64,000 bases of DNA. Source: an uncultured Microthrixaceae bacterium (lineage in GTDB: Bacteria > Actinomycetota > Acidimicrobiia > Acidimicrobiales > VFJN01). Where the stretch lies: positions 1,804,836-1,868,835 of the forward strand of contig OY970242.1 in NCBI GenBank assembly GCA_963715505.1, written 5' to 3'. Position 1 is the first letter of the stretch. Each line of letters starts with the position of its first letter. The notes beneath the pieces are model-generated. The model ran no database searches and was not told where the DNA came from. It saw only the letters and a program-made list of their open reading frames with translations. The translations under genes and the position numbers were made by a program. This document shows, in pieces, positions 9,675 through 32,454 of the stretch.

Positions 9675-11312
9675 CTACGAGTCGGGCCAAGCCAGGCATG
9701 CGAGGTCGGCAAGTTCACGAGTCCGCTCAACCACACTCTTCGGGCGCCAGGTCCGCTTCATTGCGAGTCGCTTCGTGAGCTCGAAGCCGGAGTCCCTGTA
9801 GATGGCACGCTTGTCACCGAACCCCTTGCCTCCTGCGAGATGGTTGAGCCGCTTCTCGAGAAGAGCCAGGTTCCCTAGCGTCTGAACGACTGCGGAGTCT
9901 TCCTTGCTCGACGCCGAGTGCGCCGCTGGGAGAATGTGCTCAACAGTCACCGATCGTGAGTGCCACTCGATCGGTTTCGTTGGCCGGTCGTGACGCAGGT
10001 CATCGGCCTTCTCCAACATCGCGAGCAGGTACTTAGCGCGTGAGGTCGAGACGTCTCCGTACGACGCGAAGGCGGCGCGGAAGTCCTCGTCCGTGGGCAT
10101 GAGACGGTCGAGCAGCTTGCGTACATCAGGTTGGTTCTTTGCCGTTCCATTCGAGATGGCCTGCGCCGTGTCGCCGAAGGTCTCGTCAGCGACGCCGCCT
10201 CCAAGGCGTCCTGCAAACAGCCCGCGCACAGACCATGCGGCGACCTTGTTGAGCAGGCGAGCCGCGTCACGTACATCCCATCTCGAGAAGGCAGCCAGGA
10301 GCACCGGCATGCTGGCTTCGAGCCCGAAGCGGCGGTACGCGTAAAGCGCGTCACGGACTTCGACGGTCACGTCGGCCCAGAACGAGTGCTCGGGATCTCG
10401 CAACGCGAGATACACCTCGTGGGCCCTGCTGAGGTTCTCCACGTACGCCTTTGCCGCACTCGCCTTGCCACCTACCTCGGACTGAATCGACCGGTAGAGC
10501 TTCCGGGCGGACACGGAGCCATGTCGAGACGCGAAGTCGTGACGGATGAACTTGACGAGATCCTCAGCTCGCTCGAAGTTCGCCTCGAGCTGCGCCCACC
10601 TCTCCTCGACGAAGCGGAAGTAGTCCTTCGATGAGCTGAACAGGTAGTTCTTGAGAAGATCGGCTGTCGTCAGGTCGGCGCCGCGATCGTTGAGCGTCTC
10701 GAAGATCACGTATGCCTCGGGCAGGTCCGATGCTTCGGCGACGAGAACCTGCACCCGTGTCTCCAACTGTTGCGAGAGCGCGATCAGTTGCTCGTAGTCG
10801 GCCGCGGTCGGAGCGAGGGACTCGAGGTGGTGCCTGCAGGTTCTGTAGCTCAGAATGATGCGGCTCGTGGCCGGGATCGAAGCCACGTCGCCGTCAAGGA
10901 GTGCCTGGTAGTTCGATAGGTCGTCGGGGCTCAGGATGAGGCGTTCGACCGTGTCGTCCATCGCCAACACGTAGCCGCGCAGAAAGCGCTTCTCCACTTC
11001 CTCGGCCTGACGGTCCCGACCGAGCGCCGCTAGGTGGTCGCGAATCGCGATGAAGAGCAATGCCGTCGTGGCCAGCCGTTGTTGCCCATCCACGATCTGG
11101 CGCCGACCGCCCTCCTTGTCGGGCCTGGCGAAGACCACCGTGCCCATGAAGTAGTCGACGTCCTTCGACCGCGCGGTTGCGAGGTCGGACAGGTACTCCT
11201 CGACGTTTCCCGTGTCCCACGCGTAGCTCCGCTGAAAGCGGGGTACCTCCAGCAGGTAGTCCGCCAGCAGGTGGCCGAGTTGATCGTGACCGAACTGAGT
11301 TTGATCTGCCAT
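9675..11312 (-). CDS. GmrSD-type DUF262/DUF1524 nuclease (type IV restriction / SspE/BrxU-like)
   Basis: The N-terminal ParB-like DUF262 domain shows FQRSYAW and the IVDGQQRLATTALL motif. The C-terminal His-Me/DUF1524-like region shows VTVEHILP...GNLALLEKRLN. Confidence 0.85.
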   Translation of the reverse strand: MADQTQFGHDQLGHLLADYLLEVPRFQRSYAWDTGNVEEYLSDLATARSKDVDYFMGTVVFARPDKEGGRRQIVDGQQRLATTALLFIAIRDHLAALGRDRQAEEVEKRFLRGYVLAMDDTVERLILSPDDLSNYQALLDGDVASIPATSRIILSYRTCRHHLESLAPTAADYEQLIALSQQLETRVQVLVAEASDLPEAYVIFETLNDRGADLTTADLLKNYLFSSSKDYFRFVEERWAQLEANFERAEDLVKFIRHDFASRHGSVSARKLYRSIQSEVGGKASAAKAYVENLSRAHEVYLALRDPEHSFWADVTVEVRDALYAYRRFGLEASMPVLLAAFSRWDVRDAARLLNKVAAWSVRGLFAGRLGGGVADETFGDTAQAISNGTAKNQPDVRKLLDRLMPTDEDFRAAFASYGDVSTSRAKYLLAMLEKADDLRHDRPTKPIEWHSRSVTVEHILPAAHSASSKEDSAVVQTLGNLALLEKRLNHLAGGKGFGDKRAIYRDSGFELTKRLAMKRTWRPKSVVERTRELADLACLAWPDS

Positions 11313-11609: not shown

Positions 11610-12005
11610 GTGGAGACCGAGCCAGCACGGTTCGTCCTCGCCCTCGGGTCGGACGGCACCTCTCCGCCCAGAACGGTCGGTGCGATCATCGCTACGGGGT
11701 CCGGAGGGAGTGTCGTCGGTGAGCTGGCAATCGGTGAGGGTGATGACCTCAACCCGCTCGTGATCGACGCGGCGATCACTCTTCTTCGCTCCCTGCCCAG
11801 TCCGCACCTCGCGCCGGCAGAGGACTGGCTCGCTGGGCTTGACGGGCTCACCAACGGGCCCGTCCGACTCTCAGGCCCATGGTCATGGAACGTCGAGCCC
11901 CGCGAGGCTCTGCACTGGGTCATCAAGCGCCAAGGCCTCACCGCCCGCAACGTTGGGATCATCCGGGACAGCGAGGTCCGACTCCTCGACGGCCAGCAGC
12001 CTTGA
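11610..12005 (+). CDS. hypothetical protein (first gene of two-gene cassette)
   Basis: GTG 11610 lies 5 nt after GAGGAGG (11598-11604). 131 aa with no recognisable motif. Its stop overlaps the next start (TTGA). Confidence 0.5.
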   Translation: METEPARFVLALGSDGTSPPRTVGAIIATGSGGSVVGELAIGEGDDLNPLVIDAAITLLRSLPSPHLAPAEDWLAGLDGLTNGPVRLSGPWSWNVEPREALHWVIKRQGLTARNVGIIRDSEVRLLDGQQP

Positions 12006-12958
12006 GCGACCAGTCCGGGCCGACTATCGCGGAGCTCGACCTCCCACAGAACACGAGCCTCCCCCTGTTCGTCTATGGCGCGCTCAAACCGGGCGAACTG
12101 GGGTACAGCCAGATCGAGGCGCACGTTCGCGGCCCACTTCGGGGCTGGATTCCCGGTGCAATCCGACTGCGAGACGGCCTTCCGCTCCTCCACCCTCGGG
12201 GCCGGGGAACAGTCACAGGATTCGTCCTTGGGCTCCATGAACCCGAGGGCTACCAGGCGGTGTGCCGATTCGAGCCGGCGCGCTTCTACGAGTGGGGTCT
12301 CACGACTGTGACAACGGCCGAGGGCGAGGTCGCGGCGAACGTCCTCGTGTCGCGGACGACGGAAACCGGCGAGACGTGCGATTCGTGGTCCACCCCTGAC
12401 GATCCCCTCTTCGCCTTCGCCCTGGGCGCCGTTGCCGAGCAAGCGCTGAAGTACGGCGCGACGGAGTTCGGTTCATTCAGCCCCGACGACGGCTCGGAGT
12501 GGCGTCGCTTCTACAAGATCCAGTCGGCATACCTACTCGCAAGCTCAGTTCTGGAGCGGTTGGCGTACTTCACCAATGGGGCGACCGTCGGCCCGACAGC
12601 TCGGGTCAACACCCTCGGCAGAAGAGCAGGCTTCGTAGAAGCCGTGGCCGAGGTCGGAATGACCTTCAAGGGCCGCGCGGTGTATCGCAGCGATGATCCG
12701 AAGACGAAGAGCCCGATGAACCGGGAGGAGCAGTTCGCCCAAGCCGCCTACGCCGTGCGGTCCAACCTGATGCACCGGGGCAAGAGCGCATTTCATGAAG
12801 CATCGCTCGTCCGCGGCATGCTGCTCGATCTCCACGACGTGCTCCGCCTGTACCTGCTTCGGCAAGTGCCCGACCTCGACCGCGTGTGGTCGGCGATCGA
12901 GCCAGACCTCGCTCGACACCGATGGCGATTGAAGCACCGACTCGAAGCCTGCGCCTGA
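12002..12958 (+). CDS. GGCT/AIG2-like domain fused to a C-terminal HEPN-like (Rx4H) domain
   Basis: The N-terminus LFVYGALKPGELGY...VTGFVLGL...CRFEPARFYEW resembles the gamma-glutamylcyclotransferase-like fold. The C-terminus AAYAVRSNLMHRGKS contains an R-x4-H motif in a helical region. TTG start at 12002 is assumed. The track ORF opens at 11879. Confidence 0.55.
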   Translation: MSDQSGPTIAELDLPQNTSLPLFVYGALKPGELGYSQIEAHVRGPLRGWIPGAIRLRDGLPLLHPRGRGTVTGFVLGLHEPEGYQAVCRFEPARFYEWGLTTVTTAEGEVAANVLVSRTTETGETCDSWSTPDDPLFAFALGAVAEQALKYGATEFGSFSPDDGSEWRRFYKIQSAYLLASSVLERLAYFTNGATVGPTARVNTLGRRAGFVEAVAEVGMTFKGRAVYRSDDPKTKSPMNREEQFAQAAYAVRSNLMHRGKSAFHEASLVRGMLLDLHDVLRLYLLRQVPDLDRVWSAIEPDLARHRWRLKHRLEACA

Positions 12959-13176
12959 TCACATCCGGCCCGTGGGCTATTCAGGTGCGACAGCCCTGCG
13001 TGAAGCACAGCGCGTGGAAGTCAGCCTTTTTGAGGCACCTCCCGCTGCTCAACCTGTCCAACTGACGACCCCTTGGAGAGCCCAGGCGGACGCTGGTCAC
13101 CGTGCGCTCGCAGCAGGAGTTCACTCCTGGGCGCCTCCCTCGAACAACGGCGTAGCCGGTGCTCTAAGCGGCCGCC

Positions 13177-13697
13177 CTACCTCTCGGCTGGGGATCGATT
13201 GCAGATCGCGAGTGTGATGCCAGCAGCAGGAAGGCCGCTCAGCGATGTGCCCCGCGCGCTGCCCGGCTTCTTGAGCTCCTTGACGAGCTTGCTCATGCCG
13301 AGCGACTCCAACGCGGTGGTCCAGAGCGTGGTGATTGCGGCGATGCTGGATACGGCCTCGTAGTACTTCGACGGCGGGGAGTAGGCGCCAGGAATCCACT
13401 GCATCCAGATGGCGTCGGCATCGCGGTCGTCGCAGACTTGGCCCCCATCGTTCTGAAGGAGGGCCCAGCACGGTCACGAGGTAGCCCGCGTGCTCGACGA
13501 GTGCCTGGATCACGTCCGGGGGTGTACCTGCTCTCCGGGTCCTGCTTCGAGAGAACTCCGCCCAGGCGGGGGAACCACGTCGACACACGTCCCTGCCCGT
13601 TCAGCCCACCATGCGAGACATCGGCCTCCGTTGACGCGAACTGGCGGATACGCGCCAGGGCGCGCTGGCTGTTGGCGTGCTCTAGCCATAGCTCCAT
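13177..13697 (-). pseudogene. hypothetical about 173-aa gene downstream of JAB, readable only across two +1 frameshifts
   Basis: Three successive high-GC3 minus-strand frames: MELWLEHANSQRALARIRQF...ESRYTP, then DVIQALVEHAGYLVTVLGP, then LLQNDGGQVCDDRDADAIWMQWIPGAYSPPSKYYEAV...LVKELKKPG...ICNRSPAER. The shifts sit near homopolymer runs at about 13516-13523 and about 13458-13467. A GAAGGTGA SD precedes the ATG at 13697. Confidence 0.4.
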
Positions 13698-13776
13698 GTC
13701 ACCTTCGGGCCTACGCGAGCTCAGCGGCAGGTCCAGCACAGGGCGGTAGAAGCGGACACGGCGCGACAGTGGTCAG

Positions 13777-14316
13777 CTAGCCCCCACCGGACCAGAAGTC
13801 CTCATCGGCCCTCGGGTGCCACTCCTTCACGACAAGGGCCGTGATGCGGCCGGGCTGGAGCGGCAACCAGGTGGGATGCCAGGTCCAGATGCCGAACCGG
13901 TACGACCGGTCGCTGCCATCTCGGGCGAGGAGTCCCATGAGCGGGTTGGGACAGCGGGCCTCTCGCGTAGTCGCGGTGTGCTGCATCGTGCGGCGGTCGC
14001 GGCGGCTCATGCTGAAGCCGCCGGCCGGGTGCACATGCCAGTCTCCGAGGTAGGTGACCTTGCCGTGAGTTCGCCGGTAGGTGATGTCCAGGACCATCTG
14101 CTGCCACTCGCTGTCAGGGGCGAACCGGACTGGCTGATGCTGCGCGGATGGACCTGGGCCGACCGTGGTAGCGATGACGATCTCATTCCGTTCAGGGTTC
14201 GCCCAGCCGAGGAGCATGCCTCCGGTCTCGGTTGGATGTGTCCGCTCCGCCTCGGCCGTCATATCGGCCAGTGCGGATTCGTTCAGCCAGACGGTCGGAT
14301 ACCGCATCGCGTGCAC
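13777..14316 (-). CDS. JAB/MPN (JAMM) metallopeptidase, Cap3-like
   Basis: ETGGMLLG is followed by a perfect JAMM motif, HVHPAGGFSMSRRD (HxHx7Sx2D). Confidence 0.85.
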   Translation of the reverse strand: MHAMRYPTVWLNESALADMTAEAERTHPTETGGMLLGWANPERNEIVIATTVGPGPSAQHQPVRFAPDSEWQQMVLDITYRRTHGKVTYLGDWHVHPAGGFSMSRRDRRTMQHTATTREARCPNPLMGLLARDGSDRSYRFGIWTWHPTWLPLQPGRITALVVKEWHPRADEDFWSGGG

Positions 14317-14382
14317 GCGGGGTGCTGACTGAGGACGAATGGTTCACCTGATCCGGGAAGGGCTGCCACAGCGGTGCGGAAG

Positions 14383-14390
14383 CTGTATCG
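14383..14390. repeat. IS256 target-site duplication CTGTATCG(G), left copy
   Basis: The same 8-9 nt occur at 15807-15814(15). Confidence 0.8.
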
Positions 14391-15806
14391 GTTGGCGTCC
14401 CGTGACGTGGTGTAGATCGGCGTAGGGGTCCACCCGTGGGGTGGGCCACTGGCGTGAGGCTCGGTGTGTTCCTTAGCCGAGGTCCACATCAAGGAGATCA
14501 CGCCAGTGACCCATCACGAGTCTGACCTGTCCGACCTGCTCGACGCGCTCCGCGCCGGGGAGATGACCGACACGATCCGCACGAGCCTGGAATGGATCGT
14601 CCAGGAGCTCATCGAGGCGGAGGCCACCGCGCAGATCGGGGCGGGCCTGTTCGAGCGTTCCGACGAGCGCACGACCCAGCGCAACGGGCATCGCCCACGA
14701 CTGTGGGCGACCAAGGCCGGCGATCTCGAGCTCAAGATCCCCAAGCTCCGGACGGGCTCGTTCTTCCCGAGCTTGCTGGAACGACGCCGCCGGATCGACC
14801 GGGCTCTCTACGCGGTGGTGATGGAGGCGTGGGTGCACGGCGTGTCGACCCGCAAGGTCGACGACCTCGTCGCCGCCCTCGGCGTCGGATCTGGGATCTC
14901 GAAGTCCGAGGTGTCGAGGATCTGCGCCCAGCTCGACACCGACTTGGACGCGTTCCGGGCCCGGCCGCTGAACCACATCGAGTTCCCCTATGTGTTCGCC
15001 GACGCGACCTACCTCAAGGGCCGCGTCAACGGCCGAGTCGTCTCACGAGCCGTCGTGGTCGCCACGGGGGTGACCGCCACCGGGGACCGTGAGGTCTTGG
15101 GCGTGGAGGTCGGCGACAGCGAGGACGGCGCCTTTTGGACCGCGTTCTTGAAGGGCCTCCGGGCCCGGGGCCTGGGCGGAGTGCAGCTGGTGATCTCTGA
15201 CCACCACCTCGGTCTGAAGCAGGCCATCGAGTCGGTGTTCATCGGCTCCACCTGGCAGCGCTGCCGAGTCCACTTCATGCGCAACGTCCTCGCCCGCGTC
15301 CCCAAGGCCTCCACCGAGATGGTCGCCGCAGCGATCCGCACGATCTTCGCTCAGCCCGACGCAGACCACGTCCGCTCCCAGCTCACCGAAGTCACCACCA
15401 TGCTCCACGCCCAGTTCCCCGACGTCGCCGACATGCTCACCGACGCCGCAGACGACCTCCTCGCGTTCACCGGCTTCCCCCAGGCCCACTGGCGCAAGAT
15501 CTGGTCGACGAACCCGCTCGAGCGGCTCAACGGCGAGATCAAGCGCCGCACCAACGTCGTGGGCGTGTTCCCCAACGACGCCTCCGTCGCCCGGCTCGTC
15601 ACCGCCGTCGTGGTCGAGACCCACGACGAATGGGCCGTTGCCGAACGCCGCTACCTCTCCGAAGCATCCATGGCCAAGCTCTACGCGAAGCCCGACCCCG
15701 ACACCCTCCTCGAGGAGCCGCCCCTCGCCATCACCGCCTGAGCCAAACTGTCAACGACATCGAGCTCACGCCGGCGTCGAACTACACCACTCCGCGGGGC
15801 GTCATC
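14391..15806 (+). mobile_element. IS256-family insertion sequence (about 1.4 kb)
   Basis: Imperfect terminal inverted repeats: GTTGGCGTCCCGTGACGTGGTGTAGATCGGCG versus the reverse complement GATGACGCCCCGCGGAGTGGTGTAGTTCGACG, about three quarters identical with a GTGGTGTAG core. One mutator-type transposase gene and an 8-9 bp TSD. Confidence 0.85.
14464..15741 (+). CDS. IS256 family (mutator-type) transposase
   Basis: Shows RNGHRPRLWATKAGDLELKIPKLRTGSFFPSLLERRRR...VSTRKVDDLV...FPYVFADATYLK...LVISDHHLGLKQAI...WQRCRVHFMRN...IWSTNPLERLNGEIKRRTNVVGVFPN. The true start may be GTG at about 14506. Confidence 0.92.
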   Translation: MCSLAEVHIKEITPVTHHESDLSDLLDALRAGEMTDTIRTSLEWIVQELIEAEATAQIGAGLFERSDERTTQRNGHRPRLWATKAGDLELKIPKLRTGSFFPSLLERRRRIDRALYAVVMEAWVHGVSTRKVDDLVAALGVGSGISKSEVSRICAQLDTDLDAFRARPLNHIEFPYVFADATYLKGRVNGRVVSRAVVVATGVTATGDREVLGVEVGDSEDGAFWTAFLKGLRARGLGGVQLVISDHHLGLKQAIESVFIGSTWQRCRVHFMRNVLARVPKASTEMVAAAIRTIFAQPDADHVRSQLTEVTTMLHAQFPDVADMLTDAADDLLAFTGFPQAHWRKIWSTNPLERLNGEIKRRTNVVGVFPNDASVARLVTAVVVETHDEWAVAERRYLSEASMAKLYAKPDPDTLLEEPPLAITA

Positions 15807-17590
15807 CTGTATCGGGCGTAGTGCCACTCGGCGGAGGGGTAGCCACGCTCGGTCGTCTCGCAGAGAGTCGACGCGGCAAGGCGAACCCCGGCCAGCGCGA
15901 TTGTTGCGACGTCGAAGCCAGTGCCCGTGAAGGTTGGGTCTGTGCAACCCGCTGGCCAGGCGTTCCGCGTTGCGGGATCCGGGTCCGCGGGCGGCAGCAT
16001 GCCGGGGTCGTCCTCGAGGTGGTGCATGAGGCAGGTCCAGCACGGCTCATCGGGATCAGGTCGGAACCGTGCGACGTAACCTCCCCAGCCGCCCTCGGTC
16101 CCGGCGACGACGACGTACGGAACGTTGTGATCGCGGGCGAGCTCCGAGAGGAAGTAGTTGACGCCAGTCTCCGCTGTGGCGTCGTAGACGATGTCGGAGT
16201 CGGCGACGATGCGGCTGATGCTCTCCCACTGGGGCTCGCCCTCGCCGTGAACGCGCACGCCGCCGATAGACGTGCCGAGAAGCTCAAGCTCGGTGTACGG
16301 CCAGTGCTGTGCGAGGTGGCCGTGGAGTGCCTGGAGCTTGTGGTGTCCAGCGAAGGCGTACCCGAGCGGCCAGCGAGCGGCGTTGCCGGGATCGAGGTGG
16401 TCGCGGTCCACGAGGTGGAGCTTGCCCGTACCTGCTTTCGCGAACTCAACAGCACTTGGCGCGCCAAGTCCGCCCGTGCCGAAGATGGCGACGGTGCGGT
16501 CGGACATCGCGGCGAGCGTAGGGATCCGACTCGTCATGTCGAGCGGGCCGGCTCGCAAGCCGCGCACGAGGTAGGGGCCGACTGACGTCGCGGCCGGTGT
16601 TGTCCTTCCTCTACTCGCGCCCTTGCGACGGACCTGCCTGTTCGGCGCTTGGAGCTGGGAGCCGTCTCGGCCACGAACTACGAACACCCACGCGTCTCCC
16701 TGATACACCGCTCCGGTGGCCTGATCGGCATGGCTCTCGTCGGTGAACACGACGCCAACGACATCAACTGATCCCGTGCCGATCCGCTCAAACGCGGGTT
16801 TGGCGAGCGCCGGGTTCTCGGCGATGGCGGCATCGAGCACAGCCTGGCCGCCGTCGGCGTCCGGCGGACCGGGAAGCCGACACCATCGCCCGTGGATCGT
16901 TCCCGAGAACAGCCGCCTGACGGCCGGATCTGCCTGTCGGAGGACCGTCCCATCGTCGGCTAGGACCTGCAGGATGGCTGCGCGTAGCGCTCGAACGTCG
17001 CCGCTCCCCTCGACCCCGATCTCGAGTCTGCCTCCGTTGGCCTCGGCCAACTCGCTCCATGAACCGTCCACCCGGGCCACCGCGGCCTGCTCGTACCTGT
17101 AGTAGTTGGCGTACGGCTCGACGTGGGGAAGGGGTCGTTGGCCTGGGGCGCCAGTCCCTCCCTGAGGCTCGCGATCCTCCCCTCCTGTCGTCGAACTGCT
17201 CGGGTGGCTGGACGGCTCATCCGTCCGATCGGCCAGGAGCTTTGGCATCTGCTCGGCGATCATGTCAGCCGCCGTCTCGCCAACGTCCCACTCCGAGGCG
17301 CCTGACCGGAGCAGGCACAGGTTGCCAACGAACGGCTGCTGATGCGCTCCAAAGCGATGGTCGGTCATGACCTCGACGCGAAAGTACGGGTGGAGGTCCG
17401 AGTAGGTGACCGAGAGCTCGTAGCGCGCGCCGTTGTCGTCGGTGTAGGGGACCGTGTACTGGCGCACCGCAGCGGTCCGGAGAAGATCCTCGTTGAGGAT
17501 CGGGCGCTGCCCGCCGAAGCGCTCCAGTGCCTCTTCCTCAGCCTGGAGCACCTCGGGGAAGTCCTCCCACCATGGGCGAGGAAGGCTCAC
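15782..17590 (-). CDS. E2-like/E1-like (ThiF) fusion protein, Cap2-like, with the 3' end replaced by IS256 sequence
   Basis: The N-terminal UBC-like core reads HPYFRVEV...PFVGNLCLL. The C-terminal adenylation domain reads VAIFGTGGLGAPSAVEFAKAGTGKLHLVDRDHLDPGNAARW, followed by CWTC and AGCTDP. The last 7 codons (MTPRGVV) and the stop lie inside the IS. The pre-insertion reading frame continues at 14390 down to 14283 (...RYSFRTAVAALPGSGEPFVLSQHPACTRCGIRPSG). Confidence 0.8.
   Translation of the reverse strand: MSLPRPWWEDFPEVLQAEEEALERFGGQRPILNEDLLRTAAVRQYTVPYTDDNGARYELSVTYSDLHPYFRVEVMTDHRFGAHQQPFVGNLCLLRSGASEWDVGETAADMIAEQMPKLLADRTDEPSSHPSSSTTGGEDREPQGGTGAPGQRPLPHVEPYANYYRYEQAAVARVDGSWSELAEANGGRLEIGVEGSGDVRALRAAILQVLADDGTVLRQADPAVRRLFSGTIHGRWCRLPGPPDADGGQAVLDAAIAENPALAKPAFERIGTGSVDVVGVVFTDESHADQATGAVYQGDAWVFVVRGRDGSQLQAPNRQVRRKGASRGRTTPAATSVGPYLVRGLRAGPLDMTSRIPTLAAMSDRTVAIFGTGGLGAPSAVEFAKAGTGKLHLVDRDHLDPGNAARWPLGYAFAGHHKLQALHGHLAQHWPYTELELLGTSIGGVRVHGEGEPQWESISRIVADSDIVYDATAETGVNYFLSELARDHNVPYVVVAGTEGGWGGYVARFRPDPDEPCWTCLMHHLEDDPGMLPPADPDPATRNAWPAGCTDPTFTGTGFDVATIALAGVRLAASTLCETTERGYPSAEWHYARYRMTPRGVV
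15807..15814. repeat. IS256 target-site duplication CTGTATCG(G), right copy
   Basis: Direct repeat of 14383-14390. Confidence 0.8.
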
Positions 17591-17724
17591 CCGACGGGGC
17601 GGTGACCGGGCGGCTTTGGCGGACGGTCCGGGCGGGGACGATCCGGTGGGGGTCCCGGTCGGTCCGGCGGTGGGCCCTGGCCGGGCGTGTCGTCGGGCTT
17701 GCCGGGCTCATCTGGCTTCGGCAT
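17587..17724 (-). CDS. 45-aa proline-rich small ORF ending in Gly, translationally coupled to the E2-E1 gene
   Basis: ATG 17724 lies 5 nt after GGACAGGAGG. The product is MPKPDEPGKPDDTPGQGPPPDRPGPPPDRPRPDRPPKPPGHRPVG. Its stop TGA overlaps the GTG start of the E2-E1 gene (GTGA). Coding status is unproven. Confidence 0.35.
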   Translation of the reverse strand: MPKPDEPGKPDDTPGQGPPPDRPGPPPDRPRPDRPPKPPGHRPVG

Positions 17725-17898
17725 CACGGCCTCCTGTCCACAGCCGTCGCCCACGACCTGTGGACGAATGACACGGCTGTGATTCAGGATACCGGTGGGG
17801 TGTGACAAACGGCCCTTGGGTCAGCCGTGCGCAGGAGTCGGAGCTGCCCTATGAGAGCGCACCGGCACTCGCGCCGAGCGCCGATCTTGCTGGCGACG

Positions 17899-20337
17899 TC
17901 AGGTGACGTCGGCGAGGTTCAGCAGCGCCTGCCAGGAGCCGGCTGCGCCCTTGATCGCGGACTCCGTGGCGAACAAGTAGCGCCAGGTGTCGGGCGCGTC
18001 GCCGGAGTCGTTGACGTGGCGGACCCAGCGCTCGGCCGCCTGGCGCTTGACGATGACGTCGTCGTCGGTGGCCGCGGCGTCTGACTTGCCCTCGATCAGC
18101 CAGTGCACACCGTCGGTGTCGGCTGCGATGAAGTCGGCGTAGTACGTGCCGCCCTCGTAGGCGATGCGGGCCTCGTGGTGGGCTTCGATGCGGCACCACC
18201 ACGCGATCGCGTCGTCGGTGTCGAGGATCTCGGCGATGGCGAGCTCGGTGGACTTCGCGTCGAACCGGGCGACCGGCAGCACGTTGCGGTTCCAGCCGCC
18301 GTACCAGCGGTGCGCGACAAACGGGGTCGTGCGGTCGAACACCTCACCGGGGAGGGGCTCGCCCACGCGGGGGTAGTCGACCAGCTCGACGCGCTCGACG
18401 GTGCTCGATGGACGCCTGAGGTGCTTGACCCGGACCATGGCGAGGAACGCGTCGACCGCCGCCTGGACCCGCGCCTCCCCCCACGTGGTCGACGACTCGG
18501 CCGTCACACCAGCACCCTCGAGGAACGCTTGTGTCAGTCGGCTGACGGCCCTCGACTCCTTCTTGCTCCGCTCGACGTACCGGGAGTCGAGGATCTTGTG
18601 GCGCAGCCGCTCCCGGAGGTCGTCGAGCCCGAGCTCGAGCTGGGTCGCCTCCACCACGTCCTCCGCCGCCCGGGTCGACACACGTACGCCCTCGCCCGTG
18701 CCGTCCTCGACCCGTTCCATGTCGACCAGCTCACGCTGGAGGGTCGCCGCGATCTCGGTGGTGAAGCGCCGTCCCAGCTCCTCGGCCTCGCTGCTCTCGA
18801 CGTCGGAGAGCGTGAACGCGACCGGCCGCAGCGTCGCCGTCAGGACCGGGAAGCGGAACTGTGGTGCACCTTCGACGAGGTGCATGTCCTGAGCGAGCTG
18901 CTGCATCTGCTGCTGCGCCTCGTCGATCCGCGTCTCGGCGTCGATGATCTCGAGACCCAGCGCGAACCCCTCCTCGGACGCTTCAGCACCCGAGGGCCCA
19001 GCAGGCGAGACCACCGCGTCAGCGCGGCCCGCTCCATCGCCGGCCTCTTCCGCGCCGGCAGTCGCCGTCGAGACGTCGACGAGCTGCGCCTGGCGCTCGG
19101 TGAAGAACGCCTCGAGCATGACGCCGGCGTCCGCGAGCAGCTCGCGGAACCGGCGGTGCGAGAGCACCTCGACCGTGTCGAGCATCTGCTGGCCGGTGCG
19201 CCTCCCGAACGGCAGACGCAGCCCGCGGCCGAGGATCTGCTCCGACAGCGCCTTGGACTCCAGTGCCCGGGTCGTGGCTACGACGTAGATGTTCTTGACG
19301 TCCCAGCCCTCCTGCAGCATCTGGACCGAAACGACCGCCCGCACGGGCGACGCCTCGTCCTCGATACCGTCGAGAGCCACGAGAGCCTCCTCGGGCGCCT
19401 CGGAGGTGATGGTCAGCACGGCGTCGCTGGAGCCGAGGTACTCCGGCCGAGCGAGGAGCGCTGCGAGGTCGTTCGCCTCCTCGATCGTCTCGCACACCAG
19501 GAACATCACAGCGCGCACTGGGTCTCGACCGGTCGAGGCGGTCCAGGAGTCGATCGCCTGCTGCTTCGTGTCGAGCAGCCGGACACCGTCAGCCAGGATC
19601 CGGTTCAGATCACTGGTGCCGTCACGCCGTCCGACGAGCACGGGGATCTTCACGAACTCGTCCGCGATCGCCTCCGCGAGCGTGTACTTGAACACGATGC
19701 TCTCGGGGTCGGTCTTCTCGTTCGGCGTGGCGGTGAGCCCGATGAGCGCCAGCGGGTGCAGGTCGCGGATCGAGCGGGAGAACTGCGGACCGAAGTACAC
19801 GTGGTGCTCGTCGGCGATCACCACGAGGTCGTCGAGGCCGGCCAGGTGCTCGTAGAGGCTGGCGCCAAGGTTCTCGTCGTAGTCGCGGGTTCGGCGCCGC
19901 ATCTCGCCGCGCGGGCGGAGCAGCTGCTGCACGTTGAACAGGTACAGGAGGTTGCGCTGCCCCTCCCCCACTGCCTGCGCGACTCCACCCCGCTGGAAGG
20001 TGTCGACGGTGACGATCTCAGGCCGCGACTCCAAGCCCTCGACGTACTTGCTGTCGCCCGGCGTGAAGTTGCGCCGCGTCTTGGCGAGGATCGCCGTGCG
20101 ATGGCACACGACCAGCACGTTGTGGTGGCCGGACGCTGCCAGGTAGTCGACCAGCCCTGCAGCGATGTACGACTTGCCGGTCGCGGTTGCCAGGTCGCAG
20201 ACCAGCTCGATGCCCCTGTCCTCGGCCTTGCCGAGTTCCTTTGCCACGGCGTCCAACGCCCGCCGGTTCGGCTCGCGCAGATCGAGACGAGCCGCGATCT
20301 CCTCCACCAGCTCGGGCTGGTACTCGACGAGGCTCAC
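17899..20337 (-). CDS. res: type III restriction enzyme Res subunit (SF2 helicase plus PD-ExK nuclease)
   Basis: Walker A DLATATGKSY and DEHH box IADEHH are present. The C-terminal region reads YADFIAADTDGVHWLIEGK. The start overlaps the mod stop by 4 nt. Confidence 0.9.
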   Translation of the reverse strand: MSLVEYQPELVEEIAARLDLREPNRRALDAVAKELGKAEDRGIELVCDLATATGKSYIAAGLVDYLAASGHHNVLVVCHRTAILAKTRRNFTPGDSKYVEGLESRPEIVTVDTFQRGGVAQAVGEGQRNLLYLFNVQQLLRPRGEMRRRTRDYDENLGASLYEHLAGLDDLVVIADEHHVYFGPQFSRSIRDLHPLALIGLTATPNEKTDPESIVFKYTLAEAIADEFVKIPVLVGRRDGTSDLNRILADGVRLLDTKQQAIDSWTASTGRDPVRAVMFLVCETIEEANDLAALLARPEYLGSSDAVLTITSEAPEEALVALDGIEDEASPVRAVVSVQMLQEGWDVKNIYVVATTRALESKALSEQILGRGLRLPFGRRTGQQMLDTVEVLSHRRFRELLADAGVMLEAFFTERQAQLVDVSTATAGAEEAGDGAGRADAVVSPAGPSGAEASEEGFALGLEIIDAETRIDEAQQQMQQLAQDMHLVEGAPQFRFPVLTATLRPVAFTLSDVESSEAEELGRRFTTEIAATLQRELVDMERVEDGTGEGVRVSTRAAEDVVEATQLELGLDDLRERLRHKILDSRYVERSKKESRAVSRLTQAFLEGAGVTAESSTTWGEARVQAAVDAFLAMVRVKHLRRPSSTVERVELVDYPRVGEPLPGEVFDRTTPFVAHRWYGGWNRNVLPVARFDAKSTELAIAEILDTDDAIAWWCRIEAHHEARIAYEGGTYYADFIAADTDGVHWLIEGKSDAAATDDDVIVKRQAAERWVRHVNDSGDAPDTWRYLFATESAIKGAAGSWQALLNLADVT

Positions 20338-21923
20338 GGCAGCCGACCGCCCACGAGGTCGTTCGGAGCATGGCGCAGCTTCGACCCAGGAGACAGCTCC
20401 CGGAGTCGAGCCGTAGCGCCCTCGGCGAAGACCTTGGCGACGATCACCATCCGCTCGCCCTCATCGAGCAGGCCGGCCAGGTGCTCCACCTCCGGGGGCC
20501 CGACAACACCGTCGAGCGCAGCGAGCAGTGTCCGACCCTTGCGACCGACGAAAGGTCCCGAGCGCTCCTCCGGGAAGCCGAGGTGCGCGGCGCACGCGAG
20601 CGCGAAGCGACCGTTGCCGGCATCCGCCATGTACACGTCGCCCGTCTCAAGATCGAGATCGAACATCGACGGCCCCACCTCGGCCACGACGAAGCCGCCT
20701 CCGCCCTTCCACTCGACGTCCTCGCTGATGCCGCCGGGATCCTCGCCGTCGACGACCTTCGTAAGCCGCGGGCGCGCGTACTGCTCGATCGTGTCCGCCT
20801 CGCGCTCGACCGCCACCCACCGGCGACCCATCTTGTGTGCCACCGCCGCGGTGGTCCCGGACCCCACGAAGCAGTCGAGCACGAGGTCACCGGGGTCCGT
20901 CGCGATGTGGACGATCCGCTGCAGCAGCCGTTCTGGCTTGGGAGTAGCAAACACGTCGCCGAGCAGCGCCCGCACTTCCTCCTTGCCGTTTCTGACGAAG
21001 CCCACCTCCTCCGGCGGCCAAACCGATGCGACCACCCGGCCACCCCGGACCTCGCTCAGGTACCGCTTGACGTACGGGCGACTCCCACCGTCAGCCCCCC
21101 AGTAGATCCGGCCCTCTCGATCGAGCCTCGCCAGCTCCTCTTGAGATACCCGCCAGTAGCTACCCGACGGCGGTCCTTCGATCACGCGGCCGGAAGGCGT
21201 TGTGACGACGTACAGCCCCTTCGAGTAGTAGTTGCGTGCCGCGAGATCTCCTCGCCGCCACGGGCCTCGCGGATCATCGTCAGGGTTCGTGTAGGCGCTG
21301 TCCATCCCCTCGGTGCGCGGAAGCTCGTTCGTCCTGAGGCGGCCAAGGTCCATCGCATAGACGAGGATCGAGTCGTGGTCTCCGGACACGAATCGTGCGG
21401 TGTTTCGAGGATCGTTTCGACGACGCCAAACGATCGTGGCGACGTAGTTGGACGCGCCCAGGACCTCGTCCATGACGCACCGGCACCGATGGACCTCAGC
21501 ATCATCGAGGTGCACCCACACGGATCCATCCGGCGCGAGCAGTGGGCGGATCTGCTCGAGGCGATCGCGCAGCATCGAGAGCCAGACGGAGTGCTCGAGG
21601 TTGTCGTCGTAGTTGGCGAACGCCTGCCCCGTGTTGAACGGCGGATCGATGTACACCAACCGCACCTTGCCCGCGTACGCCTCGGCAAGTTCAGGGATGC
21701 GGTGAAGCGCCGTGAGCGCGTGCAGCGCGTCACCATGTATGAGCAGGTTCGGACGCTCGACATCGATCTCGCCGACGCGGTCGACCTCGTCGATCAGGCG
21801 GACCTCGGTCACGCGGGGATCGGCCGGGTCGACCCACTCGTAGCCGCCCTCAGCGGTCGTGTGGAGGCGCTTGTCCTTGTTGGTCCATGTGAGCTCGAGC
21901 CGTCCGCTGTGCGTCATCACCAT
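20334..21923 (-). CDS. mod: type III R-M Mod subunit (beta-class N6-A/N4-C DNA methyltransferase)
   Basis: Shows LELTWTNKDK and motif IV LVYIDPPFNTG, then motif I VLDCFVGSGTTAAVAHKMGRRW after the TRD. Start set at MVMTHSG (cat 21921-21923). The longer track ORF opens at 22301. Confidence 0.9.
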   Translation of the reverse strand: MVMTHSGRLELTWTNKDKRLHTTAEGGYEWVDPADPRVTEVRLIDEVDRVGEIDVERPNLLIHGDALHALTALHRIPELAEAYAGKVRLVYIDPPFNTGQAFANYDDNLEHSVWLSMLRDRLEQIRPLLAPDGSVWVHLDDAEVHRCRCVMDEVLGASNYVATIVWRRRNDPRNTARFVSGDHDSILVYAMDLGRLRTNELPRTEGMDSAYTNPDDDPRGPWRRGDLAARNYYSKGLYVVTTPSGRVIEGPPSGSYWRVSQEELARLDREGRIYWGADGGSRPYVKRYLSEVRGGRVVASVWPPEEVGFVRNGKEEVRALLGDVFATPKPERLLQRIVHIATDPGDLVLDCFVGSGTTAAVAHKMGRRWVAVEREADTIEQYARPRLTKVVDGEDPGGISEDVEWKGGGGFVVAEVGPSMFDLDLETGDVYMADAGNGRFALACAAHLGFPEERSGPFVGRKGRTLLAALDGVVGPPEVEHLAGLLDEGERMVIVAKVFAEGATARLRELSPGSKLRHAPNDLVGGRLP

Positions 21924-23265: not shown

Positions 23266-23790
23266 ATGTTCGATCTCGACGAAGAGCTTGCCCGTTCATC
23301 AGACATGGGACGGATCGCCCATGCGGTGATCGCCGTCCTGGCCGCCACCACACGCTGTCCCACCCTCGGACAGGTTCAGCAGCTGGTCGATGAAGCGCTC
23401 AGTGGGTTCGCGCCCATCGAGATGAGAGCGCACCGACAGAACATCCGAGGTGTGGTGCACCGGTACTTCACCCGGTGTCTGCCACCTCCCGAGTTCATCT
23501 TCGGTGGCGCCGAAGTCGATCTCGGCATCGGCCGGGCCGACCTCATGTGGTTCGACATCGACGATCGCGTCCTGGCCGACGAGGTCAAGGCGGGCAGCCC
23601 TCGCCGCGTCGGGCTGGCCGCCACCACCGATCAGGTCGATCGGTACCGGCGCGCCTGCCTCAGCGTGTGGGGCGACCGCTTCGTCGGCATCCGGCTGCTG
23701 TGCCCGACCGACCCGGCGAGGTCGTTGTTCATCGACCCGGCCGGCACCACGTGCGGCCTCACCACCACCCCCTACTTCGAAGGGAACTGA
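23266..23790 (+). CDS. PD-(D/E)xK nuclease, TnsA-like position
   Basis: GGAEVDLGIGRADLMWFDIDDRVLADEVKAG gives a D...(D/E)xK pattern. Its stop lies 1 nt before the transposase ATG. The track ORF opens at 23194. Confidence 0.5.
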   Translation: MFDLDEELARSSDMGRIAHAVIAVLAATTRCPTLGQVQQLVDEALSGFAPIEMRAHRQNIRGVVHRYFTRCLPPPEFIFGGAEVDLGIGRADLMWFDIDDRVLADEVKAGSPRRVGLAATTDQVDRYRRACLSVWGDRFVGIRLLCPTDPARSLFIDPAGTTCGLTTTPYFEGN

Positions 23791-23791
23791 C

Positions 23792-25279
23792 ATGGCCAAC
23801 AAGCCCAAGTACCTCCGGGCGGCGGCGGAGCGCGCCGTCGACGCGCTGGTCGACCACCACAAGACCCACGATGGGATCCCACGCGAACTGCTACGGCGCA
23901 AGGCCAGGGAGTCCGGCTACTCCGAGCGCCACCTCCGCCGCCTGACAATCGCCCGCCTCGGCAGCTCAGCCGGGGACGGGGACGGGGAAGAGGAAGGGCC
24001 GTTCTCGGTCACCGAGGAGGTCATCACGGCGGTCTTCCTCGCATGCGGATGTCTTGCCCAGGCGCGACGCCTTCTCGAGCGTGGGGGCAAGAGGGCGCCG
24101 TCGGAGAGCACGTTCAAGCGCAAGGTCATCAGTGCGCTCGGGACGGACCAGCTCGCCTACGCACGCAAGGGCTCGGGAGGGTTCCGCGACGCGCAGGCCT
24201 ATCTGGCATCCGAGTACCCGCACCGGCTCCACACGGTGCAGCTGGACCACACCGAGCTGCCCATCTGGGTCGTGCCCCGCGGCAGCAAGACGGCGGTGAA
24301 GCCTTGGATGACAGTCGTGATGGACTCCAAGACCCGGTACCTGTTGTCCTGGACGATCACCTTTGGACGCCCGACCGCCGACGAGGTGCGCGCAGCGCTG
24401 ATGAGCGCCATGACCATCCGCACGGCACCCGACGGCGAGACGGTGGTGGGCGGCAGGCCGCTTCGTGCTGTGTGGGATCGCGGCCTGGAGTTCCTCGCCA
24501 ACCTCATCACCGAGTCGTGCCTTCGCCTCGACGTGCTTCCGGTGGCCCTCCCTGCCTACTCCCCGCATCTCAAGGGTCGCCTGGAACGGAGCTGGCGGTT
24601 CCTCAAGGAGGACTGCTTGTCGCCCCTGCCGGGCTACACCGAGGGGCCCAAGGATCTGCGTGGAAACAGCGCCATCGCCAAGGCGGCCCTCGGCGAAGAC
24701 GAGTTCCTCATCGCCCTCGCCGACTGGGTCGACTGGTACATCACCGAGCACCGGATCGACGGAGAGCTGACCCCGCTCGAGCGGTGGCAAGCAGACGGAC
24801 ACCCGATCGAGGAGGTGCCGCCCGAGCAGCTCTGGGTCGACATGCTCATCGCCAAGGACCGCTGCAAGGTCTCCAAGAACGGCATTCGCTTCGACCGCAT
24901 CGACTGGACGGCCCCCGAGATCACCGGCGTCGTCGGCCGCCGAGTCGAGATCCGGTACCTGCCACATGACCGGACGTTCATCGAGGTCTTCCTCGACGGC
25001 GACCACCTCTGCACTGCCTATCCGCAGCAGAGCCTGACGGCGGATCAACAGGAGGCGGTGATCGCACGCCGAAACGCGCAGCGCAACGCCGCGAAGCAGC
25101 GGTTCACGACTGCCAACCGCCAGCGCAAGAAGAACGCCAAGGGCCCGGTGCACCGGCTCGAGGTCGACAAGAACGGCAATCGGCTGGTCATCGACACCCC
25201 CGACGACCTGCTCGACGGCACGGACATCGACCTCGCTGAACTCCTTGGCGACAGCGACAGCCAGCCGAGGTTGTTCTGA
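23792..25279 (+). CDS. Mu/TnsB/TniA-type DDE transposase (rve core plus Mu-transposase C-terminal barrel)
   Basis: DDE context: VQLDHTELPIWV, VVMDSKTRYLLSW and YSPHLKGRLERSWRFLKE. It also shows SKNGIRFDRIDWTAPE...VEIRYLPHD. Confidence 0.85.
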   Translation: MANKPKYLRAAAERAVDALVDHHKTHDGIPRELLRRKARESGYSERHLRRLTIARLGSSAGDGDGEEEGPFSVTEEVITAVFLACGCLAQARRLLERGGKRAPSESTFKRKVISALGTDQLAYARKGSGGFRDAQAYLASEYPHRLHTVQLDHTELPIWVVPRGSKTAVKPWMTVVMDSKTRYLLSWTITFGRPTADEVRAALMSAMTIRTAPDGETVVGGRPLRAVWDRGLEFLANLITESCLRLDVLPVALPAYSPHLKGRLERSWRFLKEDCLSPLPGYTEGPKDLRGNSAIAKAALGEDEFLIALADWVDWYITEHRIDGELTPLERWQADGHPIEEVPPEQLWVDMLIAKDRCKVSKNGIRFDRIDWTAPEITGVVGRRVEIRYLPHDRTFIEVFLDGDHLCTAYPQQSLTADQQEAVIARRNAQRNAAKQRFTTANRQRKKNAKGPVHRLEVDKNGNRLVIDTPDDLLDGTDIDLAELLGDSDSQPRLF

Positions 25280-26046
25280 TGGCCGACCTCCACCAGGACC
25301 TGGAAGAAGCCCGCGTCGTGCGCACGAAGGCCTTCGACCGGCTCGACGAGGCCGGCGAGTTCGTCGTCCCTCGAGCCGAGATCCTCGTCGTCGACGGCGA
25401 TCCAGGCGTCGGCAAGACCACGCTCACCGACGATTGGGCGAACCGGCAGACGATGCCGGTCACGACCGTCTCACTCCCGCCCAAGCAGTCGTCCCGCGAC
25501 ATCGTCCGCATGCTCCACGCAGCCGTGATGGCTGGCACCGAGGCCGACGACCTGCCTGAACGAGACCTCCAGGACGACCTCACCCGGCTGCTTGGCACCC
25601 CACGCGTTGTCGTCGTGCGCAACGCCCACCGCCTCAGCACAGAAGCTGCAGGACAGCTCGAGTGGCTCCACAGCACCCCGAGCGCAGCCTGGGCGCTGGT
25701 CCTCGAGGGCGGACCCGGCACCGCAGCCGCCGTGGAGCGCGATGCCCTCCTCCGAGGACGCATCGCGAGGAGCCTCACCGTTCCGGCGCTCAAGGGTGAC
25801 GAGTTGCTGCGAACCCTCCAAGGCACTCACAGCCTGTTCCTGGGTGCCGACATCGATCTGCTAGTCGAGATCGACGTTCGCGTCTGCCGAGGGGTGCTAC
25901 GTCACTGGGCGCTCATCCTCCGGACCGCCCAGTTCCTGCAGCAGCGCGCCCTCCAAAACGGACGGGAGGCACCGGTCCTCGATCGCACCTTCGCCAAGGC
26001 GATCGTCGCTCAACTGCCCGACGCGCTGAAGCGAAAGCGAGCGTGA
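25279..26046 (+). CDS. TniB/TnsC-like AAA+ protein
   Basis: Walker A is VDGDPGVGKTT. The Walker B position reads VVVVRNAH (no acidic pair). The start overlaps the transposase stop (TGATG). Confidence 0.7.
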   Translation: MADLHQDLEEARVVRTKAFDRLDEAGEFVVPRAEILVVDGDPGVGKTTLTDDWANRQTMPVTTVSLPPKQSSRDIVRMLHAAVMAGTEADDLPERDLQDDLTRLLGTPRVVVVRNAHRLSTEAAGQLEWLHSTPSAAWALVLEGGPGTAAAVERDALLRGRIARSLTVPALKGDELLRTLQGTHSLFLGADIDLLVEIDVRVCRGVLRHWALILRTAQFLQQRALQNGREAPVLDRTFAKAIVAQLPDALKRKRA

Positions 26047-26047
26047 C

Positions 26048-29386: not shown

Positions 29387-29391
29387 TCAGC
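29387..29391. repeat. target-site duplication TCAGC (right copy, contains the nrdJ stop codon)
   Basis: TCA at 29387-29389 is the reverse complement of the nrdJ TGA stop. Confidence 0.7.
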
Positions 29392-32302: not shown

Positions 32303-32412
32303 GAGCGAGGACCCTCCTGTCGGGTGTGGTTCGAGGTGCGTGCTGTGCGGTGCGAGGGAGGACGGGGATCGGGCCCCCGTGCAGAACCTGGCGACCGGCC
32401 CGGGGAGGCCTG

Positions 32413-32428
32413 CCACTAGGTCTTGTGG
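32413..32428 (-). promoter_or_regulatory. NrdR-box-like palindrome CCACTAGGTCTTGTGG
   Basis: 16-bp near-palindrome upstream of nrdJ. nrdR is encoded in the window. Confidence 0.5.
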
Positions 32429-32454
32429 CTGCTCCGTCCTCCGACGCCCCCGAG

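Follow-up and report, generated by a model that had tools for sequence, protein, structure and literature searches.

The window analyzed here is a stretch of 64,000 nucleotides of contig OY970242.1 (assembly GCA_963715505.1, positions 1,804,836 to 1,868,835) from an uncultured Microthrixaceae bacterium, and it contains a minus-strand cassette of three genes related to the Cap2/Cap3 conjugation genes of CBASS, a defense against phages that signals through cyclic oligonucleotides. Gene 1 (17587-17724, minus strand) encodes a 45-aa proline-rich peptide, MPKPDEPGKPDDTPGQGPPPDRPGPPPDRPRPDRPPKPPGHRPVG, which starts with ATG and is preceded at 5 nt by AGGAGG. Gene 2 encodes a Cap2-like fusion of an E2 and an E1 domain (E2-E1) and now lies in two pieces, a 5' part with the native codons 1-594 (15807-17590, minus strand, with the open frame running on to 15782) and a 3' remnant made up of the severed last 34 codons and the stop (14283-14390, minus strand), which ends ..SFRTAVAALPGSGEPFVLSQHPACTRCGIRPSG. 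Gene 3 (13777-14307, minus strand, with an alternative GTG start at 14316) encodes a Cap3-like JAB/JAMM metallopeptidase. The two pieces of gene 2 are separated by an IS256-family insertion sequence (IS), and the type III restriction-modification (R-M) genes mod and res lie upstream of the cassette on the same strand. The original prediction, which was made from the sequence alone, described a 4-nt overlap of mod and res, a 174-nt gap, and a 45-aa open reading frame (ORF) whose stop overlaps the start of E2-E1, and all of these hold, position for position; the TGA of the small ORF and the GTG of E2-E1 share the tetranucleotide GTGA.

The E2-E1 protein begins with a UBC-like domain that contains His83 and Cys92, continues with a beta-rich linker, and ends in a ThiF-type E1 domain with a Gly loop at residues 371-376, Arg406, Asp470, the zinc ligands Cys517/520, and a crossover-loop Cys549. 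It matches the Pfam model ThiF (6.5e-18) and the PADLOC model E1-E2 (Cap2) (7.7e-38). A 31-member family profile matches ThiF/MoeB (7e-13) and Cap2 (9e-10) in the PDB, its first 120 positions match the canonical E2 proteins UBE2W and UBE2L3 (3e-5 to 7e-5), and Pfam Prok-E2_B is present in several homologs. The AlphaFold2 model calculated from the same 31-member alignment (predicted local distance difference test score, 82; predicted template modeling score, 0.81) has an N-terminal alpha/beta domain, with less confidence in the loop of Cys92, then a beta-rich domain, and last an E1 domain of Rossmann type. In a Foldseek search of the PDB this model has Enterobacter cloacae Cap2 as its top match (7TO3, 1.4e-19), followed by Atg7 and then by UBA5, ThiF, MoeB, BubCD, and MccB/PaaA. 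The protein thus combines a single adenylation domain and a crossover-loop Cys with a Cap2/Atg7-like fold, and both the reading of its two ends as UBC-like and ThiF/E1 and the assignment of the gene pair as Cap2/Cap3-like, as the original prediction had them, are borne out.

The IS256-family element that interrupts gene 2 is 1416 bp long (14391-15806, plus strand), encodes a transposase at 14464-15741 (Transposase_mut, 2.6e-136), has imperfect terminal inverted repeats, and is present as a single copy within the window. On both sides of it (14383-14390 and 15807-15814) stands the same 8-bp sequence, CTGTATCG, a perfect target duplication, and with its Mutator-type DDE transposase, inverted repeats, and 8-bp duplication it is a member of the IS256 family. 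Because this duplication is intact, the data suggest that the insertion is recent. The final nine codons (RMTPRGVV and the stop) of the present 602-aa E2-E1 ORF (15782-17590) derive from the IS. When the IS and one copy of the repeat are excised in silico, a 627-aa E2-E1 protein results with the end ...YSFRTAVAALPGSGEPFVLSQHPACTRCGIRPSG, its C-terminus being also given as ...LSQHPACTRCGIRPSG. As the original prediction had stated, the frame of E2-E1 then overlaps the start of the JAMM peptidase gene: the restored stop (14283-14285) and the JAB ATG (14305-14307) overlap by 25 nt, as they do in almost every homolog. The 3' remnant carries a second CxxC, which aligns with the family consensus HPxCxxC, is nearly invariant in the family alignment, and presumably forms with C517/C520 the four-cysteine zinc site of ThiF/MoeB-type enzymes. 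In the actinobacterial subclade, E2-E1 proteins end ..C..C.IR(R/P)SG and are thus Gly-terminated (residues 621-627 of the restored window protein); this end may merely reflect the overlapping JAB frame, and it could also permit self-processing or self-conjugation.

The protein encoded by gene 3 matches Prok-JAB (1e-13) and the PADLOC JAB model (4.4e-25). Against NCBIfam it matches the JAB part of the 6A-MBL cap2_3 model (5.6e-22) and Cap3 (9.4e-9), both below the cutoff of the model. Its active-site residues E30, H94, H96, S102, and D107 are intact.

We collected related loci with a word-indexed homolog search, which yielded 33 relatives, and with a scan of one genome per species, which yielded 58 loci, and added further loci through contig look-ups; ORFs in these loci were called with a simple procedure of our own. 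Across the resulting 67 loci (labeled L001 onward), which come from at least eight phyla, the sole recurring parts are E2-E1, the JAB gene that overlaps it, and, upstream, an ORF that ends in a common tail. All-against-all clustering of ORFs of at least 40 aa in 63 loci recovers only E2-E1 (63/63) and JAB (60/63) as conserved proteins, the other large clusters being antisense shadows of these two genes, and JAB overlaps the E2-E1 stop in nearly all loci. No conserved fourth gene was found, either in this clustering or in Pfam searches of the two closest neighbors on either side of the cassette in about 50 loci, which returned only scattered neighbors such as XRE-type helix-turn-helix (HTH) proteins (6), Peptidase_M78 (3, plus 3 more), type I R-M genes, and transposases. 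The catalytic residues are strongly conserved. His83, Cys92, the Gly loop, Arg406, Lys418, Cys517/520, and Cys549 are invariant in 46 full-length E2-E1 relatives, 45 of which also keep Asp470; among 57 JAB proteins Glu30, His94, and His96 are invariant and Asp107 occurs in 55. The E2-E1 family is rare per genome, with 58 loci in 185,579 species representatives (one genome per species). A profile search of 1.84 billion representative proteins returned 993 at E<=1e-30; since the best 150 are all matched over their full length (E<1e-147), the family comprises at least 150 lineages at 50% identity.

The 45-aa peptide of gene 1 has no family match, and it should be too short and too proline-rich to form a beta-grasp. 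It ends ..HRPVG, with Gly45 as the terminal residue. A same-strand ORF ends a few nucleotides from the E2-E1 start in essentially all loci with readable upstream DNA, and the last 16 residues of this ORF follow the pattern P-G-P-x-x-P-P-x-P-P-x-x-R-x-V-G. A loose search, in which K, I, L, and A were allowed at three motif positions, finds the tail upstream of E2-E1 in 48/63 loci, and yet the tails retrieved have only R, V, and G at those positions, save for one Ala. Arg(-3) and Val(-1) are present in 45/45 distinct tails, the terminal Gly in 44/45, and Pro at -15, -13, -10, -9, -7, and -6 in 40-45 of the 45. In a six-frame translation of all loci and the window (2.26 million residues) the strict pattern PP.PP..R.VG has 49 matches, every one of them directly upstream of E2-E1 on the same strand and none elsewhere. 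The small ORF clusters just 5' of E2-E1 that emerge from the all-against-all comparison all end ...R-x-V-G, and the window contains only one other ORF that ends in R.VG, which is unrelated (32663-33436).

In 33 loci the tail is carried by a bare peptide of the kind found in the window. These peptides are hydrophilic, 38-59 aa long (median 45; this range excludes a length of 95 aa in L021, which is a start-codon mis-pick), and mostly begin with ATG behind a Shine-Dalgarno sequence; (K/H/E/D)P repeats are abundant in them and their hydrophilic N-terminal half is conserved. Variant tails occur in L055 (..PPKPGKVG) and L058 (..GRNYG). The peptide is encoded but unannotated in Iamia sp. and on the plasmids of Arthrobacter sp. 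FB24 (..PPVPPGPRPVG) and Sinorhizobium fredii NGR234 (..HPPSHRPVG). On Arthrobacter sp. FB24 plasmid 1 (L067) the peptide ORF lies at ~3.8-4.0 kb of the locus and on pNGR234a (L068) at ~3.7-3.9 kb, in both cases 5' of genes annotated as 'E2/UBC family protein' and 'ThiF family adenylyltransferase', and it is missing from the gene tables examined; in at least two cases (L063, L064) the small ORF is among the gene calls of public metagenomes. About nine tails have one to four extra residues past the conserved Gly. The extensions, found in L009, L014, L022, L027, L029, L038, L041, L057/L061, and L064, read RL, WSRA, WVR, SAR, CG, L, NE, or LAK, with a longer run in L014. In L028 (368-676) two tail units stand in tandem, each followed by Arg (..PQTPDRPVG-R-...-PRTPDREVG-R), in a layout like that of a polyubiquitin precursor. 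Because tails extend past the Gly or stand in tandem, a peptidase would be needed to expose this residue; the sequences therefore imply proteolytic maturation, presumably by JAB. Apparent natural fusions of the peptide to E2-E1, seen as N-terminal extensions in 12 representative proteins and in P0026 of L066, were rejected as out-of-frame proline-rich read-through or contig frameshifts; in L066 (7800-8200) pieces of the proline-rich ORF lie in three different frames and the start called for E2-E1 (P0026) falls inside it, which probably reflects homopolymer assembly errors and not a fusion.

The same tail is also found behind folded domains. The domain in front of it is SMODS/CD-NTase (the nucleotidyltransferase of CBASS) in L013 and L049 and ThsB_TIR in L016 and L018, both of which also have an adjoining gene for a small membrane protein; L030 has two DUF1508 repeats in this place, L022, L027, and L029 have DUF3892, and five Bacteroidota loci have a small Cys-containing domain. 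In L013 a patatin gene lies directly upstream of the CD-NTase, the classic order of type II CBASS, and by gene content L013 and L049 are assigned to bona fide type II CBASS. The solved CD-NTase 9SA4/9SA5 aligns into the proline-rich tail region of L013, a hint that proline-rich tails exist on other CBASS cyclases. A neighbor-joining tree of E2-E1 groups the CBASS and TIR loci in a single small clade that has tail-only lineages around it. Given that relatives bear the tail on CD-NTase, ThsB TIR, DUF1508, and DUF3892 proteins, we posit that it is a portable handle recognized by this enzyme clade; judged from the loci compared, the bare peptide is the minimal and commonest form of it. The original prediction had asked whether CD-NTases are consistently absent from the neighborhoods of close homologs, which is the case in most relatives but not in L013 and L049.

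Based on these observations, we propose, with a probability of roughly 0.7, that the three genes make up a self-contained, Cap2/Cap3-type cassette for conjugation whose substrate is the dedicated, disordered, proline-rich peptide of 45 residues. The original prediction had considered a conjugation module with a different substrate, and the conservation of the tail upstream of E2-E1 backs this idea; among the candidate substrates it had listed, comparative genomics favors the small Gly-terminated peptide, and Res/Mod and the downstream ORF have no support. By analogy with Cap2 and other E1/E2 enzymes, the E1 domain would bind the conserved tail (...PPKPPGHRPVG) and adenylate Gly45; the acyl group would move to the crossover-loop Cys549 and then, with His83 assisting, to Cys92 of the E2 domain, from which it would be transferred onto an amino group of a target protein. 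JAB would take the tag off again, and in relatives with one to four extra residues or tandem units it would also trim the precursor. The overlapping stops and starts couple the three genes translationally. A bolder form of this proposal, namely that a disordered polyproline peptide of about 45 residues without a beta-grasp fold is a genuine ubiquitin-like modifier in an autonomous and widespread three-gene system that is probably antiphage, we offer tentatively, at slightly less than even odds. The company the cassette keeps (restriction systems, GmrSD, a defense-associated reverse transcriptase (DRT), and, in relatives, Fic, SIR2, and regulators like CapH/CapP) suggests a role in antiphage defense or a related stress or mobile-element function.

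Several observations weigh against this proposal. The peptide is of low complexity, and a proline-rich frame arises easily in a high-GC genome; a chance origin is made less likely by the conservation of the peptide across phyla that include the low-GC Bacteroidota and Patescibacteria. Neither an effector nor a tagging target could be identified among the window ORFs or the conserved neighbors, and no relatives were found in IMG/VR or among GenBank phages. The window copy itself is disrupted: the IS cuts 34 residues, with the zinc CxxC among them, off the C-terminus of E2-E1 and separates JAB, whose translational coupling to E2-E1 is lost, and the cassette in the window is therefore probably inactive, a point that the original prediction understated.

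Type II CBASS is one of the closest known systems. There, Cap2 adenylates and conjugates the disordered C-terminal tail of the CD-NTase, and Cap3 reverses the reaction (10.1101/2022.03.31.486616; PMC10097602; PMC11153139). The cassette shares with it the three-domain E2-linker-E1 architecture of Cap2, a separate JAB gene directly downstream, and an operon-encoded substrate with a disordered, Gly-ending tail, the adenylation of which is here predicted. The catalytic Cys residues lie at nearly the same positions, C92 and C549 versus C109 and C548 in Cap2 (10.1101/2022.03.31.486616), and in L013 and L049 enzymes of the same clade serve as the Cap2 of complete CBASS operons. With invariant catalytic residues in E2-E1, a downstream JAB, and a Gly-ending tail as putative substrate, the sequences place the locus among Cap2/Cap3-type modules. 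It is not a complete type II CBASS, however: CD-NTase and effector genes were not found in the window and are lacking in most relatives, and the substrate is a bare 45-aa peptide. The window searches concur with the original prediction, which had reported no nucleotidyltransferase, effector, or beta-grasp candidate. The cargo proteins of the family, searched with phmmer against all 624 window ORFs of at least 50 aa, reveal no SMODS/CD-NTase or TIR relative (none at E<=1), Pfam and PADLOC scans of the main island ORFs contain no CD-NTase, and no cyclic-nucleotide-activated effector (patatin, SAVED, transmembrane protein, endonuclease, etc.) is present among the scanned window ORFs. Identity to solved Cap2 is only 12-14%, and the tail here is the long conserved polyproline motif PGPxxPPxPPxxRxVG. 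The E2 domain here keeps a His-x-x-Pro...Cys motif, whereas E. cloacae Cap2 is described as lacking the HPN motif (10.1101/2022.03.31.486616).

Cap2 and Cap3 are also found with Pycsar, metallo-beta-lactamase (MBL), and Thoeris genes, the proteins of which bear such tails (PMC11601596; 10.64898/2025.12.03.692087). In these operons, as here, a portable pair serves different tail-bearing proteins, and L016 and L018 are ThsB_TIR examples of this within the family; unlike here, they include an effector, and what is conjugated is an enzyme. The 6A-MBL system consists of a single E2-E1-JAB polypeptide and an MBL gene (PMC1779556). The JAB protein in the window scores best against the JAB part of the corresponding NCBIfam 6A-MBL cap2_3 model, but the genes are separate here and their products score 53.3 and 78 bits with NF058523, far under its cutoff of 320. 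No MBL family occurs among the scanned window ORFs or among the 25 listed families (of 69 and 76 matched) of neighbors in the related loci. The operon types 6a-6e of Iyer et al. (2006) do not include one that consists of a peptide, E2-E1, and JAB, and the loci of Arthrobacter sp. and NGR234 were placed under type 6b (PMC1779556). Cap2/Cap3 conjugation is already known as a kind; of its tail-only peptide form we found no description in the openly searchable literature (subscription-only papers lay outside this search).

The Bil system encodes a small Gly-ended modifier together with E1, E2, and a peptidase that also matures precursors, and it tags a phage structural protein (PMC10557695, PMC11601596). 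The cassette resembles Bil and Bub in the small modifier with C-terminal Gly that is encoded along with E1, E2, and peptidase, and BilA and BubA are likewise matured. However, the Bil and Bub modifiers are beta-grasp proteins, whereas the cassette has a Cap2-type fusion enzyme and lacks a beta-grasp gene. A Bil-type E1 has tandem adenylation domains and a CYS domain, as opposed to the single adenylation domain of E2-E1, and Bub differs in its Ser/Tyr chemistry and its DUF6527 protease, to which no scanned window ORF has a match. The actinobacterial pupylation system (Pup, PafA, Dop) provides a precedent for a short, disordered, non-beta-grasp peptide that serves as a covalent protein tag and has a dedicated enzyme for removal and maturation. 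The likeness to the tag proposed here ends there, as the chemistry and the enzymes are unrelated: pupylation enzymes are glutamine-synthetase-like ligases that act on the side chain of a C-terminal Glu, and Pup is not proline-rich.

Among the alternatives, we consider it unlikely that the locus is a degenerate type II CBASS, or a Thoeris system with Cap2/Cap3, that has lost its CD-NTase or TIR protein and effector and retains the small ORF as a functionless 3' leftover. In favor of this reading, the same tail occurs in two complete type II CBASS loci and in two TIR systems among the relatives, PADLOC assigns the proteins to the CBASS Cap2/Cap3 models, and the window copy is decaying anyway through the IS. 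Simple loss of a CD-NTase, which the original prediction had also contemplated, does not agree with the bare-peptide form being the majority (~33 of ~52 loci, in many phyla), with the uniform length of the peptide, its own ATG and Shine-Dalgarno sequence, and its conserved N-terminal half, with the invariance of the catalytic residues in bare-peptide loci, or with an E2-E1 tree in which tail-only lineages surround the CBASS/TIR clade. A peptide pathway of the RiPP kind (ribosomally synthesized and post-translationally modified peptides) strikes us as quite unlikely. In such a pathway the small ORF would be a precursor whose C-terminus is modified by a MccB/PaaA-like enzyme, JAB would be the processing peptidase, and the product would be a bioactive peptide, secreted or intracellular, and not a protein tag. 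A short precursor-like ORF does lie directly 5' of a ThiF-family enzyme, MccB and PaaA are among the matches of the E1 domain (~1e-7 by profile; 7e-11 to 2e-10 by Foldseek), and proline-rich peptides can be bioactive. As in the MccB (microcin C) and PaaA (pantocin A) pathways, the C-terminus of a short peptide would be activated by a neighboring ThiF-family enzyme. Yet MccB and PaaA are without an E2 domain and JAB, while E2-E1 has a conserved E2 domain with invariant His and Cys, which plain adenylation or cyclization would not need, and its overall fold is closest to Cap2 and Atg7. The peptide ends in Gly, as ubiquitin-type substrates do, and not in the Asn of microcin C precursors, and the chemistry differs. 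The MccB and PaaA products are exported antibiotics with transport and immunity genes, whereas no exporter, transporter, or immunity gene is conserved near the cassette, and the identical tail occurs on folded enzymes (CD-NTase, TIR).

The small ORF might instead be a regulatory leader without a function of its peptide, in which stall-prone, elongation factor P (EF-P)-dependent translation of a polyproline stretch tunes the expression of E2-E1 and JAB. The GTGA overlap couples the translation of E2-E1 to that of the small ORF, and the peptide is rich in PPP, PPG, and PPD, which are strong ribosome-stalling motifs relieved by EF-P. A leader would not require an R-x-V-G terminus that is invariant across phyla, a tail fused behind folded cargo domains, or tandem Gly-terminated units and short trimmable extensions, and we regard this explanation as very unlikely on its own; a leader role may coexist with the conjugation cassette as an added layer of control. 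Least credible is an accessory role for the type III R-M system, in which E2-E1 and JAB would modify Res or Mod to regulate restriction. The original prediction entertained such a regulatory add-on, and in the window the cassette is indeed co-directional with res and 174 nt downstream of it, with no convincing terminator or promoter in the gap. However, homologs of the window res are absent from 62 related loci and mod has only one (L044, 37% identity), the genes up- and downstream vary between loci, and neither Res nor Mod ends in the tail motif. We reject the add-on because the linkage to R-M genes is not conserved; the linkage to the small ORF is, and the 173-aa gene that the original prediction had also proposed as a possible partner has no counterpart in the related loci. 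The mod homolog of L044 (5283-9515, minus strand) adjoins an 868-aa ORF that could be res, and the two are convergent with the cassette and start ~2.6 kb beyond JAB.

In the known E1/E2 systems of bacteria, what is attached to the target is a beta-grasp protein (Bil, Bub) or an entire signaling enzyme (the CD-NTase of type II CBASS, TIR in some Thoeris operons). The loci described here suggest a third and minimal way, the use of the conserved tail by itself as a separate peptide. Should the peptide prove to be conjugated, it would represent a second Pup-like disordered protein tag, built with ubiquitin-type chemistry, it would explain hundreds of 'orphan' Cap2/Cap3 pairs that defense finders score as incomplete CBASS, and the cassette would constitute a very small, genetically encodable set of tag, ligase, and eraser. 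Were the modifier to be independent of fold, bacterial E1/E2 chemistry would not depend on the ubiquitin fold, the tails of CD-NTase and TIR proteins in CBASS and Thoeris would be the same handle with a payload, and the first gene of the cassette would be an overlooked one, unannotated even on pNGR234a and Arthrobacter sp. FB24 plasmid 1. This key gene escapes gene callers and annotators, and the 16-residue motif offers a handle on substrate recognition by Cap2-like E1 domains. For the window itself the outcome is more modest, an independent resident of a defense island next to a type III R-M system that has been knocked out by an IS256 element.

The cassette lies in a stretch of lower GC content (0.63-0.70 at ~9-33 kb, compared with 0.70-0.78 for the window). 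The mod gene (20334-21923, minus strand, with the longest ORF reaching 22301) matches N6_N4_Mtase (7e-43) and PADLOC MTase_III (3.7e-132). The ATG at 21923 yields MVMTHSGRLELTWTNKD and is a reasonable start because the homology to type III methyltransferases begins there, the PADLOC MTase_III similarity starting at about residue 130 of the long ORF. The res gene (17899-20337, minus strand; ResIII, 2.7e-17; REase_III, 3.3e-49) overlaps mod by the 4 nt already mentioned, and the two form a type III R-M system in one operon. The gap between res and the small ORF (17725-17898) had no convincing promoter or terminator in a scan in which the sigma-70 consensus is of little use for a high-GC actinobacterium. 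This R-M system is an independent neighbor of the cassette in a defense island. A GmrSD-type type IV restriction enzyme (9675-11312, minus strand; GmrSD_N, 3.2e-28; GmrSD_C, 1.5e-18; PADLOC HEC-06, 4.5e-127) marks the low-coordinate end of the lower-GC island. Upstream of mod, a Tn7/Tn5053-like transposition module (23450-27717, plus strand) is composed, in this order, of a TnsB-like transposase (Mu-transpos_C, rve; PADLOC TnsB, 1.4e-12), an AAA_22 ATPase, a 386-aa protein without an assigned family, and an HTH_3 protein. It is followed by the DRT gene (27666-29189, minus strand; PADLOC DRT RT_UG23, 8.5e-29), which adjoins a class II ribonucleotide reductase gene (29387-32458), around which the GC content starts rising to the genome level.

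Downstream of JAB, the 173-aa ORF that the original prediction had listed as a candidate substrate has flat codon-position GC, no family match, and no counterpart in the related loci; probably it is no gene at all. Two ORFs of 148-155 aa that overlap each other (13121-13739, minus strand) were dropped as substrates for the same kind of reasons (flat codon-position GC, no family matches, and no homologs elsewhere), and this stretch is probably a non-coding spacer. Farther on, a 359-aa ORF (11879-12958, plus strand) shows the codon bias of a coding sequence and contains a domain of the AIG2/GGACT type (8.6e-6), which is gamma-glutamyl cyclotransferase-like; gamma-glutamyl-amine linkages are what the enzymes of this family act on, and none of the related loci has a counterpart of the ORF.

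The neighbors of the cassette in relatives include type I R-M, REase-ARP, Fic, PIN, SIR2, and conjugation genes, and many of the plasmid-borne copies reside on conjugative plasmids. The window has no XRE-HTH and M78 pair beside the cassette. A divergent pair of XRE-HTH and Peptidase_M78 (IrrE/ImmA-like) genes lies directly upstream of the cassette in L063 (6504-7721), L065 (6833-7761), and L022/L027/L029, and in L001 (6083-7030) the M78 gene occurs alone, ~2 kb from the cassette. Such pairs resemble CapH/CapP, the regulators of CBASS and other immune operons (10.1101/2022.04.27.489752).

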